A stretch of 32,000 bases of DNA. Source: Candidatus Saccharibacteria bacterium oral taxon 488. Its GTDB lineage: Bacteria; Patescibacteriota; Saccharimonadia; Saccharimonadales; Saccharimonadaceae. Positions within the stretch are counted from its first letter, which is position 1. Each line of letters opens with the position of its first letter. The translations under genes and the position numbers were made by a program. The notes under the pieces were generated by a model that saw only the letters and a list, made by a program, of their open reading frames with translations, searched no databases and was not told the DNA's origin. The DNA lies in NCBI GenBank assembly GCA_010202845.1, contig CP047921.1, positions 330,001 to 362,000 on the forward strand, given 5' to 3'. Of this stretch, positions 7,207 to 32,000 are shown piece after piece.

Positions 7207-7293
7207 GCCGCGGTGGCGGAATTGGTAGACGCGCTAGACTCAAAATCTGGTGAGCAATCGCTCGTGCCGGTTCAAGTCCGGCCCGCGGTACCA
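7207..7293 (+). tRNA. tRNA-Leu (anticodon CAA), CCA encoded
   Basis: Hand-folded cloverleaf. Acceptor stem is GCCGCGG/CCGCGGT (G1-U72). The D region GGCGGAATTGGTAGACGC is typical of Leu. Anticodon arm is CTAGA-CTCAAAA-TCTGG. There is a long variable arm, T-arm GCCGG-TTCAAGT-CCGGC, and discriminator A followed by CCA. Confidence 0.93.
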
Positions 7294-10265: not shown

Positions 10266-11072
10266 TTACTTGGCAACTGATGTATTGTCGCGTAATTTGA
10301 CCATGTTTTGGTACACTTCGTCAAAGGTCAGCCCTGATTCGTGGATGAGGCTGGCTAGGTCTTTGCCGACATAGCGGAAGTGCCAGGCTTCGCTGGCGAT
10401 GCCGGTGATTTTTTCCTTGCCCTTCGGATAGCGCAGAATAAAACCGTATTCGTGGGCGTGGGTGGCGAGCCAGCCGGCGGTTTTTGGATCAAGTGCGCAG
10501 TCGCTGAAGCGGGCCTTGCATTTCTCGGAAAAGCTGGTTAAGTCAACCGCTAGGCCCAGCTGATGCTCGCTGTGGCCAGGCTTGGCGACATATTCGTCAG
10601 TGTGGGCGGCGCCGTTTTTGGCGGTGGTTTCAGTGCGGACTTTGGCTTGGGCGGTGCCGGAGCGGTAAGCGCTAGAGACGAGGACCGGCAGCTTGGCTTT
10701 GGTTGCAGCCTGACGTAGTTGCTCCAGTGGCTCTTTAACCATCGGTTGCACGCGCTTATCATCTATCCACGCTGGTGTGCCATCAGTAATATCAGTCAGC
10801 GGCGGCTCAAAGGCTGGGTCGATGCCTTGCTTGCCCGAGACATAAGACCAGATTTTCCCGGTTTGTAAATACTTCCACGACGGAAAGGTCAAGTCGCGAT
10901 TGGTGCGGTCAAGGCGGATGGTGACCGGCTGAAAATTATACAGCGGCGAATTAGCGACCGACGCCGACGTTTGGTTGACGAGCTGCGTGCCGCCATTGAT
11001 CATCAGTAGTGTTAGTGTCGTCCAGGCCGCCAAAACCATGGCCACGACTGCGCGCCCCACCCCGTGCTTCAT
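10266..11072 (-). CDS. D-alanyl-D-alanine carboxypeptidase, peptidase M15B (VanY-like), paralogue 2
   Basis: Motifs SAYRSGTAQ, PGHSEHQLGLAVDL and EAWHFRYVG supply the Zn ligands of VanY/M15B. An N-terminal signal/TM segment is present. Confidence 0.85.
   Translation of the reverse strand: MKHGVGRAVVAMVLAAWTTLTLLMINGGTQLVNQTSASVANSPLYNFQPVTIRLDRTNRDLTFPSWKYLQTGKIWSYVSGKQGIDPAFEPPLTDITDGTPAWIDDKRVQPMVKEPLEQLRQAATKAKLPVLVSSAYRSGTAQAKVRTETTAKNGAAHTDEYVAKPGHSEHQLGLAVDLTSFSEKCKARFSDCALDPKTAGWLATHAHEYGFILRYPKGKEKITGIASEAWHFRYVGKDLASLIHESGLTFDEVYQNMVKLRDNTSVAK
10415..10460 (-). repeat. 46-nt tract 43/46 identical to 11228-11273 (29-nt perfect run) inside the VanY paralogues
   Basis: I aligned the two tracts directly. 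ccttgcccttcggatagcgcagaataaaaccgtattcgtgggcgtg compares with ccttacccttcgggtagcgcagaataaaaccgtattcgtgggcatg. Confidence 0.85.
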
Positions 11073-11957
11073 TTATTGTGTTCCTCGCTGTTTGAGTTTG
11101 GTCATTGCTTCTTCAATATACGACCAAGCCTCCTCCATCGTCAAGCCCGACTGATGCAGAGCGCCCGCTAGTTCCCGCCCGACGTAGCGAAAATGCCATG
11201 GCTCGTATTGATAGCCGGTGATCGATTCCTTACCCTTCGGGTAGCGCAGAATAAAACCGTATTCGTGGGCATGAGCGGCTAGCCATTTGCCGGCGGTGGT
11301 TCGTTCGAAACAATCATCCACCCAGCAGGTTTGATCGGCGCCAGCAAAGTCGACGGCTAGGCCTGATTGGTGTTCGCTGTGGCCGGGGCGCGAGCTAAAG
11401 CGGCTGGCTTCGGCCTCGCCATGTCGGCGGGCGTAGCTGGCAAAGAGTGAGGCTTGGGTGGCGTAACTGCGGTAGCCTGAGCCGACGCGGAGGGTGACGC
11501 CGGCGGCGCGGGCAGCGGCGACTAATTTCTCGAGATCAGGCATGAGGACGGCGCGGAGCGAGCGCTCATCCTGACCGCGGCCGGGTAATGTCGGCACGCT
11601 GACGAGGCGGAGGTCGCTGGGCTGATAGCGAGGATTGGCGAAGGCTCGGGATTTGTTAGCAATTTTCCAGAGATCGGCGTCATCGGCACTGTTGACAATG
11701 CGAGCGGGGATCGGTGTAGCGTTTGGCAGAGCGATGGTAATTGGTGCAGCTGGTGCTGGAGTTTTCGGGCTGTCGGGATCTTTTTCTTTGGGTGTCGGCG
11801 CGGGCTGCTCTTGGCTGATAGGCTGCTGGGCAGTGGTACGCGGCGGGTTGAAATGACGGAGGGTGAAATAAGTCGCTACAGCACTACTGGCGATGATCAG
11901 CACGGCACCCAGGCCAAGGAGCAGCTTACGTTCCCTCAAGCGTTTGGTAATTTTCAT
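11073..11957 (-). CDS. D-alanyl-D-alanine carboxypeptidase, peptidase M15B (VanY-like), paralogue 1
   Basis: Motifs SGYRSYATQ, PGHSEHQSGLAVDF and EPWHFRYVG, plus an N-terminal TM and a Pro-rich linker. Its stop abuts the start of the next paralogue with no gap. Confidence 0.85.
   Translation of the reverse strand: MKITKRLRERKLLLGLGAVLIIASSAVATYFTLRHFNPPRTTAQQPISQEQPAPTPKEKDPDSPKTPAPAAPITIALPNATPIPARIVNSADDADLWKIANKSRAFANPRYQPSDLRLVSVPTLPGRGQDERSLRAVLMPDLEKLVAAARAAGVTLRVGSGYRSYATQASLFASYARRHGEAEASRFSSRPGHSEHQSGLAVDFAGADQTCWVDDCFERTTAGKWLAAHAHEYGFILRYPKGKESITGYQYEPWHFRYVGRELAGALHQSGLTMEEAWSYIEEAMTKLKQRGTQ
11228..11273 (-). repeat. partner of the 10415-10460 tract
   Basis: See 10415-10460. Both tracts encode AHEYGFILRYPKGKE. 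Confidence 0.85.
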
Positions 11958-17792: not shown

Positions 17793-19787
17793 ATGATAGC
17801 CGACATTCACATCACCGAGAAGAGTTTTGGCGACAAGACGTTGATGCGTGACGTCAAGTTTAGCGTGGACGACGGCGAGAAAATTGGCGTGGTCGGTCGC
17901 AATGGCGTTGGTAAGTCGACGCTGTTTGGGGTTTTGGCGGGCACGGATACCGACTACACCGGTGAGGTGATTTTCCGGCGCGGCATCACCGTGGCCAGTA
18001 CGGCGCAGGAGCATCATGGTCTGGGCGATCAGACGGTGCTGAGCTACATTTTGGCGGGGCTACCGGAATATGCGAGCTTAAAGAAAATTATTGATGAATA
18101 TCCCGAGACCATGGGCGATAATATGCGCAAAATCGAGGAGTATACTCAGGCGCTGGAGCGATTTGACCAGAAAGGGTTTTATCAGATTGAGGAGAAGATT
18201 GGGCGGGAGCTTGATAATTTTCAGCTGAGCGGGTGTGGCGAGCGGCCGCTTGGTTCCCTGTCGGGTGGTCAGAAGCGGCTGGTGGAGATCGTGAAGATTA
18301 TGCATGCGGAGGCGCATTTGGCGCTGATTGACGAGCCGACCAATCACATGGATTATGTGGCCAAGCAGCAGTTCATCGACTGGATGAGTTCGCAGCCGCG
18401 CCAGGCCATGCTGATCATCACCCACGACCGCGATGTGCTGGGTCGGGTGGATCGAATTGTCGAACTCAAAGACGGCCGAGCGGTCAGCTACCGCGGTAAT
18501 TATGACGCTTACCTCAAGCAAAACGCTCAGGCGACGGCGGCGGGCATGAATAATTTTGAGCAGGTCGAGAAGCGGATAACCAACCTCAAACAAAAGGTGC
18601 TGGATTATCAGCGGCTGAAGGAAAAGTCGCGCAACCCCGGTACCATCCAGAAGTTTAAGCGGCTGGAAAATGAAGCACGGGCGGAGCTGGCGGAATTATC
18701 AGAGATGGACAAGCCGACATTTTGGATCGATAAGGAGTCGGCTGGCCAGCTTGATTATAAATCGGCTGAGCGCTACGGCAAGTTCAAGGCGCGTAATATT
18801 CGCCTATCGATGAAAGACGCGGCCAGTCGCAGCCAGCATGTGTTGGTGCGGGTTGAGGATGCGGCAGTTGGCGTTGGCGAGCGGATATTGTTTGAAGGGG
18901 TAAATATTGATCTGCGTGAGGGCGAAGCGGTGGAGCTGCGCGGCCGCAATGGCGCTGGCAAGACGACGCTGATTCGGATGTTGCTGGGGCAGCGGCGAGG
19001 TTCGTACTCCAGCCTCTCTGATTCGCGGCAGAATTCGGCTCGCCCGTCTCGCAAACATCTTTCTCTTCAGGCCGGCGCGCCGCCAACTGATTCAGCTGGC
19101 GCTCTTGGCACGCCTTTGCCGGAAAGGCAAAGCCTTCAGAAAAAGAGTTTGACGAGCCAGCTCGAATGCACTCAGAAGAAATCTGAGATGCCACTCGCAT
19201 CCAACGCGTCGACTGCGGCACCTCCTGCGCTGGAGGCTGTGGAGCATTCGCGAATAGCGAGTGCTCCAGCCGAACGCTCGCGTAGTATCTCCAGTGGAGA
19301 TGCAAGCGAAAAGAGTACTCCAGCGCAGGAGCGTGGCGCTGGCGTCACCCCTATCCTCTACTCCGGCAACCTCTTCCTCGACCCGCAGGTGCGGGTGGGC
19401 GTGTACGAGCAAGAAATTGATGAGCGGTATTTGGCGGATCCATTGGAGGCAGCGATCGAGAAATTGTACCTCAGCCGCGACCTGCCGATTTCTGATACCA
19501 AAATTCGCCAATTACTAGCTGATTATCTGTTCACCGAAGCGGATCGGATGACGCCACTGGCGCGCCTGTCGGGTGGTCAGAAGGCACGCTTTCAGATCAT
19601 TGCCATGCTGGCGAATGACCCGCAGCTATTGATTTTGGACGAGCCGACCAACCACCTTGACTTACCGAGCATCGAGGAGTTAGAGACGGCACTGGCGAAA
19701 TATTCTGGCGCCATTTTGTATGTCAGCCACGATAACTATTTCCGCCAAGCAATCGGTGGCGAAGTCGTACAAATCGGTGCAGTATAA
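17793..19787 (+). CDS. ABC-F family ATPase (two ABC cassettes, no TMD) carrying an in-frame insertion of about 118 aa in NBD2
   Basis: Walker A motifs are GRNGVGKST and GRNGAGKTT. Signature motifs are LSGGQKRL and LSGGQKAR. Walker B motifs are LALIDEPTNHMD and LLILDEPTNHLD. An inter-domain linker is present. Low-complexity insert at about 18990-19346. Confidence 0.9.
   Translation: MIADIHITEKSFGDKTLMRDVKFSVDDGEKIGVVGRNGVGKSTLFGVLAGTDTDYTGEVIFRRGITVASTAQEHHGLGDQTVLSYILAGLPEYASLKKIIDEYPETMGDNMRKIEEYTQALERFDQKGFYQIEEKIGRELDNFQLSGCGERPLGSLSGGQKRLVEIVKIMHAEAHLALIDEPTNHMDYVAKQQFIDWMSSQPRQAMLIITHDRDVLGRVDRIVELKDGRAVSYRGNYDAYLKQNAQATAAGMNNFEQVEKRITNLKQKVLDYQRLKEKSRNPGTIQKFKRLENEARAELAELSEMDKPTFWIDKESAGQLDYKSAERYGKFKARNIRLSMKDAASRSQHVLVRVEDAAVGVGERILFEGVNIDLREGEAVELRGRNGAGKTTLIRMLLGQRRGSYSSLSDSRQNSARPSRKHLSLQAGAPPTDSAGALGTPLPERQSLQKKSLTSQLECTQKKSEMPLASNASTAAPPALEAVEHSRIASAPAERSRSISSGDASEKSTPAQERGAGVTPILYSGNLFLDPQVRVGVYEQEIDERYLADPLEAAIEKLYLSRDLPISDTKIRQLLADYLFTEADRMTPLARLSGGQKARFQIIAMLANDPQLLILDEPTNHLDLPSIEELETALAKYSGAILYVSHDNYFRQAIGGEVVQIGAV
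19171..19342 (+). repeat. intragenic hairpin-rich repeat element, copy 1 (in ABC-F, sense orientation)
   Basis: By direct comparison, 19267-19342 is the exact reverse complement of 28908-28983 (76/76). Recognisable homology continues to about 19171, matching about 29082. Internal inverted arms lie at 19222-19235 and 19318-19331. Confidence 0.9.
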
Positions 19788-22400: not shown

Positions 22401-22937
22401 ATGGCGCGGACGCTTCGGCGAAAGTTGGCACGACACGCGGCCGAGCGGCTGCTGGCGGGTGACGCAGCAGTGATTGATGAATTAGCGGCGCTGATCGTCC
22501 ACGAGCGGCGCGAGCGAGAGGTTGATCTGTTGGTGCAGGATATTGAGGCGAAATTGGCCGAGCACGGGACGGTTGTGGCGACGGTGGAAAGCGCAACACC
22601 GCTGGACGAGGCGACGAAGGATGCAATTAAACGGCTACTATCATCTAACTCGGGTATGGAGTCGCTGACATCTGTGGAGGGTCGCTCTGCAGCCCGAGCA
22701 TCCAGAAAGGACGCCCGGAGCGAAGCCCGCGTACCCGAAACAGATGGTAGCGACCGTGCCACTCAGCATGTCGAACTTCCTGATACGGAAGTCCCGAGCG
22801 ATCGCATCGCTCAGGTGCGCCTGCGCGAAATCATCCGCTCCGAGTTGATTGGTGGGGTGAAAATTACCACGCCGACTCAAGTGATAGACGCGACGATTGC
22901 CAAGAAATTAAACGACTTGCGGGCGAAGAAAATCTAG
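22401..22937 (+). CDS. atpH: F0F1 ATP synthase subunit delta (OSCP), with an in-frame insert of about 55 aa
   Basis: The C-terminal OSCP pattern is [27 protein letters not shown]. Operon position supports the call. The insert lies between KRLLSS and VRLREII. Confidence 0.8.
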
Positions 22938-28597: not shown

Positions 28598-29851
28598 TCA
28601 CATTATATCATAATATTTGTATTTTTCAAGTATCTGGCGGACGTCGTCGGTGCTGGTGGTGTGCATCAACTGTTCGCGCAGTTCCTTGGCGCCATCAAAG
28701 TCGCGGATGTAGATTTTGAAGAAGCGTTTGAGGGTTTCGAAGGGGCGGCCGAGAGTTGGTTGATAGCGGTCAAAGAGATCGAGGTGGTAGTGTAATAAGG
28801 CGATTAGTTCAGTTTTACGGGTGGTAATGGATAGTTCTGCTCCCTCGGAGTGTTCTTTACGGATGGCTTCGCTCGCCTCTCGGACATCGTCAGAAAAGCC
28901 GGGGTCACCAGCGCCACGCTCCTGCGCTGGAGTACTCTTTTCGCTTGCATCTCCACTGGAGATACTACGCGAGCGTTCGGCTGAAACGTCCGCTCCTCGC
29001 GAACGTTTCACAGCCTCCAGCGCAGAAGGTGTCGCTGGCGCTGGTGTATCTGACGTGAGTGGCGTCTCAGAAAAAATCTGGGATTGTCTCGGGTCCCGGA
29101 TTGTTTTATGAGATACCGCTCGAGATGCTCGAAAACAAAACGGATCGCTGAAAATGCCCCGCCCGATCATGACGCCGTTGATGCCGGGATGTTGACGGAC
29201 TAGCTCTAGACCATGGGTTCGGTTGCGGATATCGCCGTTGATAGTTAGTAAAGTTTGTGGGGCGATTTCATCGCGTAGTTTGATGATGTCGTTGATGAGC
29301 TCGTAATGCGCTGGGACTTTACTCATTTCTTTTTTGGTGCGTAGGTGGATGGTTAGGTTGGCGAGGTTTTGCGTGAGTAAGGTGCTAAGCCATTCGCGCC
29401 ATTCGTCGATATAAGTATAGCCCAGCCTGGTTTTAACGCTGACTGGCAATCCAGCAGTTTTAGCAGCGGCAATGGCGGCGACCGCTACGTCGGGCTGGCG
29501 GATCAGTGCCGCTCCCCCGCTTTTGATGGCGGATTTGGCGGGACAACCCATGTTGATGTCAATGCCGTCAAAGCCGAGCTCCATGCAGTGAGCGGCAAAT
29601 TGTTCCATGTCGCCCGGCTCACCGCCCCAGATTTGGGCGACCAGCGGATGCTCATCGTCGGTCTTGACGAGCCGCCCAGCGATGGCCTTGTCGCCAGCGT
29701 GCACCCAGCCAGTTGCATTGGCAAACTCGGTGAAAAACACGTCGGGCGCGCCCGCCTGTTTCACGACATGGCGAAACACCACGTCCGTGACGGCTTCCAT
29801 GGGTGCCAAGATGAAAAATGGCTGCGGTAGATTGTCCCAAAATGATGTCAT
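28598..29851 (-). CDS. dus: tRNA-dihydrouridine synthase (Dus family) carrying an in-frame insertion
   Basis: Motifs are ILAPMEAVTDVVFR, GFDGIDINMGCP, TIHLRTKKE, INGDI and GVMIGRG. A low-complexity insert lies between the TIM barrel (…DPFCF) and the C-terminal helical domain (…ELIALLHYHLDLF). Confidence 0.9.
   Translation of the reverse strand: MTSFWDNLPQPFFILAPMEAVTDVVFRHVVKQAGAPDVFFTEFANATGWVHAGDKAIAGRLVKTDDEHPLVAQIWGGEPGDMEQFAAHCMELGFDGIDINMGCPAKSAIKSGGAALIRQPDVAVAAIAAAKTAGLPVSVKTRLGYTYIDEWREWLSTLLTQNLANLTIHLRTKKEMSKVPAHYELINDIIKLRDEIAPQTLLTINGDIRNRTHGLELVRQHPGINGVMIGRGIFSDPFCFRASRAVSHKTIRDPRQSQIFSETPLTSDTPAPATPSALEAVKRSRGADVSAERSRSISSGDASEKSTPAQERGAGDPGFSDDVREASEAIRKEHSEGAELSITTRKTELIALLHYHLDLFDRYQPTLGRPFETLKRFFKIYIRDFDGAKELREQLMHTTSTDDVRQILEKYKYYDIM
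28908..29082 (-). repeat. intragenic hairpin-rich repeat element, copy 2 (in dus, sense orientation)
   Basis: 28908-28983 is the exact reverse complement of 19267-19342. Homology extends to about 29082. Arms lie at 28919-28932 and 29015-29028 (13/14). Confidence 0.9.
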
Positions 29852-30563: not shown

Positions 30564-32000
30564 CTACGCTACCTCTGTTAATAAATCCTCCTCAAACTGC
30601 AGCATCCCCTTATAATCCGCTGAATACCCAGAGATATCCGGTAGTTCCAGCATGGTGATTTTCCGCCAGACGACATTGATTAGCCGGGCAAATTCAGCCA
30701 ATTCCTCCTTAGAGAACGTGTCCTCCAGGCTGAGGATGCCGCCAGTTTTCATGTCCGGCTCGACGAATTGCAGGCGGGCGCCGGTGAAGGTGAAATTGCC
30801 ATAATCGCGTGATGACGTGACTAAGAGTTGATAAAACATCAGCTGCTGGCGGTATTTGTGGAGCTTGATTCTTTCGTAATCAGACGCGCCCTTCCAGGAG
30901 TGCGATGGCTTGCCGGTCTTGTAATCGGTCACGAATATGGTTTTATTATTCTTATCAATATCAGCGACGTCCAGCTTGCCGGTCAGGCGCGCGCCGCTAA
31001 CGACGACGCCTTGATGAGCGAAATCGAGTTCCGCGAGCTCCGTGTCACGAAAATCAGACGATTTGGCGTCCAGAAACGCCGTCAGCGCCGCCGTGCCTTT
31101 GTCTAGATATAGCTCGAAATCGTCGGGCAGCAGGTGCTGGGTCTCGAGCGATGTGCGGAAATGTTGGAGGATGCGCTCGGCAGGCGGCAGGCGGTGGTCA
31201 GCGCCTAGCAGATTGTGCAGCTGCTGGAGACTGGCGTGAATGGCGGTGCCGTAGCTGGCGGCGGGATTTTTGGCGGACGGAAAGCGCAGCAGATTATTCA
31301 ACAAAAAGTTCTGCGGGCCGCCGCGCGAGACGTCGAGGAAGTTATTCAGATGCGTAATGGAAAGTTTGTAGGTTTCTAAGGTCGGCGCTAGTACATCCTT
31401 GAGCTCCGCGGTAATCGGCGCGCTCAGCCGCGTGCTCCAGTCGGTTTGCGCCATAGTGATTTGCGCCGCGGGCGTGTCGGCGGCGGGGATAATCGTCGGT
31501 GTGTGGGCGGTCAGGAAGCTGGCGATCATGGTGTCGCTACCGGCGTCGTTGGTCTGGGAATAGGTCATGGTCAGGGTGGTCTTGGCGCGGGTCATCGCTA
31601 CGAAAAATAGCCGCAGCCGCTCGTCGTAGCTGGCGCCGGCGGGCTGGAGCTGGAGGTTGGCGGGATAGCGAATCAGCCGCGAGCGCGAGCGGACTTTCTC
31701 GCCCCACGCGCTGTCGATTGCCCCAATGACGAAAACGTGCGGGAACTCCAGGCCTTTGGATTTGTGGGCGGTCATCAGGTTGATGGCGCCACCGAGGGTG
31801 CTGGCCTGGGGACGGATGTATGTCAGGCGGGTTTTGGTCGAGCGGTGCAGGTCGATGAACTCTAAAAAGTCCGCCAGCGTCGGTATTGCGTCGGTGACGC
31901 GGTCGCGTAATTTTTGGCGCAGTGTGCGCAGGCTCTCGAGCGTGGTTAGATAGGCGTCGGGGTTTTGGGCGAGGTTATCGGGCGAGAAGTAGTGGGCGGC
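30564..32000 (-). CDS. UvrD/PcrA/AddA-type SF1 helicase with C-terminal RecB-like (PD-(D/E)XK) nuclease domain, C-terminal part only
   Basis: I checked the frame by hand and it is open from 32000 down to the stop at 30564. Helicase motif INLMTAHKSKGLEF is present. The C-terminal nuclease motif is GKLDVADID...IFVTDYKTGK. The N-terminus lies beyond the right edge. Confidence 0.85.
   Translation of the reverse strand, partial: AAHYFSPDNLAQNPDAYLTTLESLRTLRQKLRDRVTDAIPTLADFLEFIDLHRSTKTRLTYIRPQASTLGGAINLMTAHKSKGLEFPHVFVIGAIDSAWGEKVRSRSRLIRYPANLQLQPAGASYDERLRLFFVAMTRAKTTLTMTYSQTNDAGSDTMIASFLTAHTPTIIPAADTPAAQITMAQTDWSTRLSAPITAELKDVLAPTLETYKLSITHLNNFLDVSRGGPQNFLLNNLLRFPSAKNPAASYGTAIHASLQQLHNLLGADHRLPPAERILQHFRTSLETQHLLPDDFELYLDKGTAALTAFLDAKSSDFRDTELAELDFAHQGVVVSGARLTGKLDVADIDKNNKTIFVTDYKTGKPSHSWKGASDYERIKLHKYRQQLMFYQLLVTSSRDYGNFTFTGARLQFVEPDMKTGGILSLEDTFSKEELAEFARLINVVWRKITMLELPDISGYSADYKGMLQFEEDLLTEVA

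Follow-up and report, generated by a model that had tools for sequence, protein, structure and literature searches.

A branched palindrome in frame within essential genes of Saccharibacteria and its likeness to the Rickettsia palindromic elements

Rickettsia palindromic elements (RPEs) are repeats of 105–150 bp with inverted termini, a long stem-loop and an open frame, which are fused in frame into conserved genes (PMC2229807; PMC10969869; PMC1779305). They also occur outside protein genes, and the product of an RPE-containing gmk is translated and active; RPE-1 alone has 44 copies in R. conorii, and protein-coding palindromic repeats have also been reported in Wolbachia (PMC2229807; PMC10969869; PMC1779305). 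ERIC/IRU, the 107-bp form of Correia, QMITE1 and Nezha are small non-autonomous elements with inverted termini, structured transcripts and occasional in-frame fusions (PMC2229807; PMC10969869). Further, long inverted repeats have been described inside functional protein-coding genes, where secondary structure and coding are preserved together (PMC6649704). Here we analyzed a stretch of 32,000 nucleotides (nt) from Candidatus Saccharibacteria bacterium oral taxon 488 (contig CP047921.1; hereafter the window), in which a palindrome of about 140 nt lies in frame in the gene of a tRNA-dihydrouridine synthase (Dus) and again in the gene of an ABC-F ATPase.

We consider it probable, at roughly 60%, that this palindrome belongs to a family of protein-coding palindromes that is analogous to the RPEs and new for this phylum. 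Like RPEs, the element measures 100–150 bp, has inverted termini and a stable fold, lies in frame in housekeeping genes and has copies outside protein genes. It encodes no transposase, and its host is an obligate symbiont with a reduced genome, as for RPEs. The likeness to RPEs that the original prediction had pointed out was thus apt, in that the element is a repeated structured palindrome in frame at probably permissive sites within essential genes. Its accompanying remark that no described element family was recognized also held, as Rfam gave no match and we found no paper describing the element in Saccharibacteria.

All coordinates refer to positions in the whole window, with the strand in brackets (Table 1). 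The arms 19210–19349 and 28901–29040 formed the sole long inverted repeat of the window (140 nt, 88% complementary in the repeat search). Chance is not an issue for this repeat, because every other repeat in the window was 72 nt or shorter. Pairwise alignment of the two copies gave 76 consecutive identical columns, each stretch being the exact reverse complement of the other on the chromosome, with weaker similarity beyond this core that reached a tctgagaYgccactc motif. The dus and ABC-F genes are on opposite strands, and therefore both copies are in the sense orientation. They share the reading frame, the 25-amino acid (aa) peptide AERSRSISSGDASEKSTPAQERGAG and similar flanks. A covariance model of the element (R1) scored the dus copy at 162 bits on the − strand versus 13.6 on the + strand, and the ABC-F copy at 161.6 bits on the + strand versus 22.6 on the − strand; these two were the copies that the model recognized in the window (n = 2). 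Copies of the type A subfamily all have this 76-nt half of the element in nearly invariant form, and other genomes carry the same 3' half in their Dus, TopA, Der and sense ABC-F copies.

The insert of Dus spans aa 257–322, after the last barrel strand and before the C-terminal helices. The ABC-F insert comprises about 120 aa of the second ATPase domain, of which the element makes up the last ~55; its borders were read directly from the protein sequence as ...GRNGAGKTTLIRMLL (Walker A) and ...VGVYEQE (Q-loop). The original prediction had given the identical core with weaker similarity around it, the common frame, sense orientation and peptide, and both insertion sites, all of which were borne out here. 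The 5' flank module SETPLTSDT... is part of a larger composite and lies outside the palindrome itself.

A complete genome of 853 kb encodes an NCBI protein that is identical to the ABC-F protein of the window. Further, dozens of independently assembled Dus and ABC-F orthologues, 84–97% identical, had the same insert at the same place; the Dus relatives carry names such as Nanosynbacter or oral TM7. Misassembly of the window, against which the original prediction had advised a check, is therefore excluded.

Table 1. Positions of the two element copies, their parts and their host genes in the window.
Feature	Position	Strand	Basis or remark
Element copy in dus, full palindrome with outermost arms	28906..29046	−	Inverted repeat, fold, covariance model R1
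Covariation-supported core of the dus copy	28919–29028	−	Coordinates mapped via alignment A6
Element copy in the ABC-F gene	19204..19344	+	Inverted repeat, fold, covariance model R1
Core of the ABC-F copy	19222–19331	+	Inverted repeat, fold, covariance model R1
76-nt identical stretch	28908..28983	−	Equals 19267–19342; spans junction, hairpin 3 and 3' arm of outer stem
Hairpin 1 of the dus copy	28982..29010	−	Allele GAAACGTTCGC...GCGGACGTTTC, peptide KRSRGADVS
Hairpin 1 of the ABC-F copy	19240..19268	+	Allele GGAGCATTCGC...GCGAGTGCTCC, peptide EHSRIASAP
Hairpin 3 of the dus copy	28941..28972	−	CGCT...ATCTCC AGT GGAGAT...AGCG
Hairpin 3, ABC-F counterpart	19278–19309	+	Fold and covariation
5' flank module SETPLTSDT...	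29047..29071	−	Common to ABC-F 19182–19203 (+) and to TopA and Dus of relatives
Stop-free antisense frame over the dus copy, 96 codons	28821..29111	+	List of open reading frames; not a gene
Host gene Dus (tRNA-dihydrouridine synthase), 417 aa	28598..29851	−	Pfam PF01207, E 1.8e-46, residues 14–252
Host gene ABC-F ATPase, 664 aa	17793..19787	+	Pfam: two ABC_tran and ABC_tran_Xtn

The element is a branched palindrome of ~110–141 nt, in which a 16-bp outer stem carries two hairpins on either strand. The sense RNAs of both window copies folded into the same shape, in which a long outer stem bears hairpin 1, a tiny hairpin and hairpin 3. The fold energy was −94.1 kcal/mol for the dus copy (z = −7.2 versus shuffles) and −97.7 kcal/mol for the ABC-F copy (z = −8.0); the antisense strand folded equally well (z = −7.1). 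The two copies diverged most in hairpin 1, where three double compensatory changes were found at pairs 46:70, 48:68 and 50:66 (A-U to G-C twice and G-C to A-U once). A likeness of hairpin 1 to a parS half-site was dropped, as other hairpin-1 alleles do not have it.

The fold was supported by covariation in a gapless alignment of 92 distinct copies, to which a structure of four helices and 43 pairs was applied, with slid partners as controls. In this structure 91.9% of cells were paired, compared with 36–53% when the partners were slid. Changes on both sides were found in 17 of the 43 pairs (279 cells), compared with 4–9 pairs (8–44 cells) in the controls, and the covariation score was 0.22 versus 0.07 or less. 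RNAalifold indicated 15 compensatory pairs. Hairpin 3, which is helix 4 of this structure, was paired in 90.9% of cells and had three pairs with double changes. G-U cells (258) outnumbered A-C cells (67) on the top strand of the element itself, whichever strand was transcribed. This excess was seen in both host orientations, and the asymmetry is therefore a property of the element rather than of the transcript. The window copies are oppositely oriented to a constant GC skew, so that a simple replication-strand rule does not explain the excess. The sole Rfam match at gathering level in the window was a tRNA gene at 7207–7290 (+), outside the element; at permissive thresholds the best match to the element was 14.7 bits (E 1.1; gathering threshold 61), with no intron or ribozyme.

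To survey the family, one genome per species (596 Gb) was scanned with a degenerate 23-base core pattern, which yielded 105 stretches, about 100 of them in oral Saccharibacteria. Six matches in other phyla were regarded as chance, since their spacers differed in length and the covariance model rejected them. A second scan, of metagenome contigs with a different anchor, added at least 120 further loci, and 105 of 118 metagenome copies listed keep the first search pattern. The census comprised at least 224 copies, 106 from species-representative genomes and at least 118 from metagenomes. They occupied seven sites only: ABC-F, LeuRS, TopA, Dus, Der, an RNase HII-YraN fusion and the spacer between relA/spoT and ppa. 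Among the matches listed from both scans, all copies sat in Saccharibacteria-type contexts, about 90% were genic and 23 lay in the relA/ppa spacer. Pfam confirmed the six host gene families, and each insert site was placed between recognized domains or motifs. The Rfam scan of the loci showed no copy inside an RNA gene. Viral contigs and phage genomes yielded no copy, and a phage vector is therefore unsupported. Two protein searches were of limited use for counting: a word-indexed search with a 65-aa insert profile returned one match despite dozens of carriers and was, for so short a query of low complexity, too insensitive to serve as a census, and an exhaustive hidden Markov model search with a 56-aa profile returned six representatives and mainly exposed chimeric open reading frames (ORFs).

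The intergenic copies lay ~45 nt past the stop of a short (520-aa) RelA/SpoT homologue, with a convergent pyrophosphatase gene beyond (for example L009, 3000–3118). Several of them had indels or stops in the two frames that are coding elsewhere, as expected where there is no translation. These copies might act as a terminator.

In the genic copies listed, the host frame was open in 200 of 201. The original prediction had expected an ordinary repeat of the repetitive extragenic palindrome (REP) or MITE (miniature inverted-repeat transposable element) type to occur in both orientations and in intergenic DNA and to disrupt the frame often; here both orientations and intergenic copies do exist, whereas frame disruption was nearly nil (1 of 201). 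Among the 200 in-frame copies, 127 were read in one sense frame (ERSRSISSGD...) and 73 in one antisense frame (HSSLKSPPEIFRERSAETS...). The earlier claim of sense-only insertion thus fails for the family, and the sense orientation in the window merely reflects how these two sites are occupied in this genome. The listed antisense copies were located in ABC-F, LeuRS, RNase HII-YraN and one TopA, and in ABC-F and LeuRS the orientation at one and the same site differed between genomes. The sense frame was free of stops in 90 of 102 copies and the antisense frame in 99 of 102; the other four frames usually had stops. Antisense copies in the ABC-F and LeuRS genes of other genomes use the frame that is stop-free in antisense over the dus copy. 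The peptide of this frame, ...SLASPLEILRERSAETS..., corresponds to the inserts of P0153 and P0204 and to 73 further copies. The peptides of the two orientations are unrelated (ERSRSISSGD... in sense, HSSLKSPPEIFRER... in antisense). The two frames in use are the pair that is exchanged by turning the palindrome about its outermost arms, for which the odds of coincidence are one in three.

Copies at the same host site in different genomes were more alike (identity 0.879) than copies in different hosts of the same genome (0.807). Concerted evolution within genomes was therefore rejected as a general rule. Copies clustered mainly by host gene, and most sites are therefore old and vertically inherited. 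Several features of the sequences nevertheless indicate exchange among copies. The type A subfamily is nearly unchanged across Dus, TopA, Der and sense ABC-F copies, and two type-A hairpin-1 alleles are shuffled among these four hosts; other genomes, such as L043 and L074, have the hairpin-1 allele of the window ABC-F copy in their TopA gene. Over most of an aligned stretch of 155 nt, 5' flank included, the TopA copy L043 is the same as the window ABC-F copy. In three Dus copies (L064, L104 and L108; A6 columns 44–72), hairpin 1 combines the 5' arm GGAGCATTC and the 3' arm GGACGTTTC of different alleles, with incomplete pairing, and unrelated sequence stands in place of the 5' outer arm (peptide ...GPGLFSDDTREMGNKYAKLETV...). 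This hairpin looks like a recombination junction inside the element. At the ABC-F site, which is a mosaic of several modules, flanks only 1.3% apart carried copies of opposite orientation and different subfamily.

The family differs from described systems in several respects. RPEs belong to Rickettsia, whereas the element belongs to Saccharibacteria in the Candidate Phyla Radiation (CPR), with no evident sequence relation, RPEs being set apart here by features other than direct sequence comparison. Unlike RPEs, the element occupies seven sites with 1–5 detected copies per genome among the matches listed, may occupy a given site in either of its orientations, each strand having one open frame, and has a branched fold rather than a single hairpin. 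Further, its nucleotides are more conserved than the silent sites of its hosts, which may set it apart from RPEs. Bacterial MITEs are mostly intergenic and high-copy, with TA or other target duplications and a partner insertion sequence (IS); the element is nearly 90% genic and low-copy, and neither a target duplication nor a partner IS was found in the loci examined, which are parts of genomes. Repeats associated with REP-associated tyrosine transposases (REP/RAYT) are extragenic, high-copy and 20–40 bp long, whereas the element measures 110–141 nt, is about 90% genic and is low-copy. An ordinary REP or high-copy MITE was ruled out by the seven sites and the 1–5 detected copies per genome in the listed matches. 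The arms of the long inverted repeats in functional genes encode conserved parts of the protein, and these repeats form no dispersed family (PMC6649704); the element recurs in genes unrelated to one another, as an insertion by which a non-conserved loop is added.

On these grounds, the element would be a non-autonomous DNA palindrome of ~110–140 nt that is housed in the linkers or loops of essential genes and in a single intergenic position. With one stop-free frame on each strand, either orientation would be translatable, and the host protein would gain a hydrophilic loop of 40–55 aa that is probably disordered. Copies would recombine with one another, and slippage between short direct repeats would remove segments in frame. 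We infer its past mobility and the route of that mobility, as well as the reason for the nucleotide conservation.

Several observations weigh against a protein-coding palindrome of the RPE kind. No transposase, target-site duplication or true empty site was found, the candidates for the latter proving to be internal deletions, and mobility is unproven. Copy number is low (1–5 detected copies per genome at seven sites among the matches listed), and when 759 kb of related loci were searched with the covariance model, one partly deleted Dus copy was all that it added to the pattern matches. Translation is deduced only from the sequences, as the frame is maintained and the hosts are essential. A further point concerns silent sites. 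Columns 76–86 and 109–120 of A6 are invariant by construction of the first pattern and were excluded from divergence tests; third positions were taken from the flanking 300 nt of the host gene in the same genome pairs. The element positions free of the pattern differed by 0.017–0.125 per site, compared with 0.19–0.32 at the flanking third codon positions. Thus, element bases diverge 2–15 times less than silent third positions of the flanking host gene, and the edges are sharp. No excess of change at third codon positions was found inside the element. In 21 distinct LeuRS sequences, third-position diversity fell from 0.21–0.33 outside to 0.00–0.03 over the element and recovered within about 90 nt of it. 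Ascertainment cannot yield this valley, because the forced columns were excluded and the flanks came from the same genomes. A residual caveat is that short-read assemblers may homogenize repeats, most copies being from short-read metagenome-assembled genomes (MAGs); site-specific variants were resolved and three complete genomes agree, which weighs against such homogenization. The valley is too strong for a neutral passenger or selfish DNA at old orthologous sites. Nucleic-acid selection, repeated site-specific (homing-like) replacement and very short-tract exchange are all possible causes. If confirmed, the valley is the one feature that could raise the element beyond the known kind.

In a tentative and less probable alternative, the element is a functional nucleic-acid element under host-level selection, either an mRNA structure or a protein-bound DNA site that works in either orientation, with the peptide as a by-product. 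Nucleotide conservation well above that of host silent sites, the sharp edges, the equal conservation of paired and unpaired positions, the fold maintained by covariation and the equal folding of both strands would all fit such a function. As the peptides of the two orientations are unrelated, the peptide cannot be the conserved object. Further, the small fixed set of sites was repeated in two independent surveys among the matches listed, and the host genes serve translation and stress physiology (leuS, der, abcF, dus, topA, rnhB-yraN and relA, the last on its 3' side). However, no known RNA family in Rfam matches, and neither a binding protein nor a phenotype is on record. Sequence-specific RNA loops would not survive inversion, and the G-U excess follows the top strand of the element. 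Relatives exist that do not have the element or have large parts of it deleted (P0112, P0096, P0103 and P0078 in Dus; P0161 and P0191 in ABC-F), and the ABC-F site is highly polymorphic among near-identical flanks. An orientation-tolerant structured nucleic-acid module under nucleotide-level selection in a regulon-like gene set, or a homing palindrome that re-invades seven targets, is accordingly a possible reading that we regard as unlikely.

Much less probable is an intragenic invertible switch, in which a recombinase flips the segment within a population to produce two protein isoforms. Such intragenic invertons were reportedly described by Chanin et al. (2024, Nature) as segments between inverted repeats inside a coding gene whose frame is open in both orientations. 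The element shares with them the inverted repeats inside a coding gene and the open frames in both orientations. LeuRS and ABC-F hold both orientations at exactly the same site, the used frames interconvert by a flip about the outermost arms, and both frames are open in almost every copy, whichever is in use. At the ABC-F site, orientation was uncorrelated with flank phylogeny (34 of 64 nearest neighbors agreed), and it differed between flanks 1.3% apart. The LeuRS site tells otherwise, as orientation tracked flank phylogeny in 46 of 47 nearest neighbors, which indicates an old split. Further, ABC-F copies are of type A when sense and of type B when antisense, and the LeuRS orientations differ in their stems. 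The sense and antisense forms are different sequences belonging to different subfamilies, and therefore they are not two states of one segment; unlike in invertons, the two orientations are sequence-distinct lineages. The fit of the frame geometry has a one in three chance. Taken together, this indirect evidence speaks against an inverton at LeuRS and is ambiguous at ABC-F.

It is still harder to credit that removal of the element precedes synthesis or maturation of the protein, whether as an intron-like RNA, by translational bypass or as a protein-level intervening sequence, an idea raised at the RNA level by the original prediction. Its strong RNA structure is compatible with removal, and the Der copy L001 (1488–1531) has an in-frame TGA inside the element. 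This TGA, however, stems from the loss of a single base from the hairpin-3 loop and stands on a metagenome contig of 1.5 kb. It was rejected as evidence of splicing and reflects a sequencing error, a pseudogene or a minority variant. All other genic copies listed keep the frame open, using two of six frames, which would be needless if the element were excised. The indels seen among orthologues were all multiples of three. Three shortened alleles (P0078 and P0013 in Dus, P0161 in ABC-F) were in-frame deletions at three different position pairs, between the 4–5-nt direct repeats CCAGC, GCGC and TCGCG, and represent the usual slippage instability of palindromes. Rfam gave no intron or ribozyme match, and an insert of ~55 aa is far too short for an intein. 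RNA-level removal is thus unsupported, and the insert is most likely translated as a disordered loop. In an AlphaFold2 model of Dus, residues 229–340, which lie between the barrel and the helical domain, had a predicted local distance difference test score (pLDDT) below 50 and almost no secondary structure, the whole model being poor (mean pLDDT 51, 19-sequence alignment).

The probability that the repeat is an assembly artefact or a chimera at a collapsed repeat is negligible: the element does cause chimeras elsewhere (P0243, P0244, P0090 and L058), but each window copy has the same gene on both sides, and this arrangement of gene plus insert recurs in many independent assemblies and in complete genomes. 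The chimeric ORFs joined at the element were P0243 (Der N-terminus, element and ABC-F C-terminus), P0244 (Der, element and Dus), P0090 (TopA and Dus) and L058 1020–1174 (Der and TopA); P0242 was a further such ORF. Gene fusions exactly at the element in public protein sets and MAGs are probably assembly chimeras, and real recombinants are possible among them.

Other insertions were noted beside the element. In the window, 18990–19175 encodes ~65 aa of the ABC-F insert upstream of the element (GQRRGSYSSLSDSRQNSARPSRKHLSLQAGAPP...QLECTQKK), which consists of further modules variably present among close relatives; this part was not notably structured as RNA (z = −1.3). A module SLSDKSIALRTALPDAFDLEE was common to Der and ABC-F in relatives. 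These modules suggest that additional families of in-frame cassettes may exist. At 22640–22830, atpH (ORF 22401–22937) encodes an ATP synthase delta subunit with a ~55-aa hydrophilic insertion that splits the OSCP match in two. Its RNA folded better than shuffles (z = −3.7), model R1 did not recognize it (6.4 bits), and it may be another coding palindrome. In close relatives (including L002, L003, L004 and L005), housekeeping proteins varied in length: 472–521 aa for ATP synthase beta, 617–758 for ABC-F and 351–498 for Dus. Insertions in housekeeping proteins thus seem common in this clade.

Two further loci of the window are unrelated to the element. At 30564–31775 (−), only the 403-aa C-terminal part (UvrD_C and PD-(D/E)XK nuclease) of an AddA-like helicase-nuclease was found, whose relatives have 1164–1189 aa; an in-frame stop seems to lie farther upstream in the window, and the gene may be split or a pseudogene. 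At 10266–11957 (−), two tandem paralogues of a VanY-type D-Ala-D-Ala carboxypeptidase gave the direct repeats D1 (72 nt, 88%) and D5 (41 nt, 78%), which represent an ordinary gene duplication.

The repeat is long enough to yield chimeric genes in short-read metagenome assemblies, and Der-Dus, Der-ABC-F and TopA-Dus fusions are already present in public protein sets, which is relevant to those who annotate Saccharibacteria MAGs. As an RPE-like family, the element would extend protein-coding palindromic repeats, so far a peculiarity of Rickettsia with a report from Wolbachia, to a new phylum. That an unrelated family behaves alike suggests that the in-frame insertion of palindromes recurs in symbionts with reduced genomes, and the element would be one source of the lineage-specific insertions that lengthen CPR proteins. 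If the tentative reading as a nucleic-acid module were true, it would be a DNA site or mRNA structure recognized by a factor of these reduced-genome episymbionts. Natural transformation has reportedly served as a genetic tool in a Saccharibacterium. The sharp silent-site valley makes it testable in culturable TM7 strains whether such palindromes are junk, switches or functional parts.

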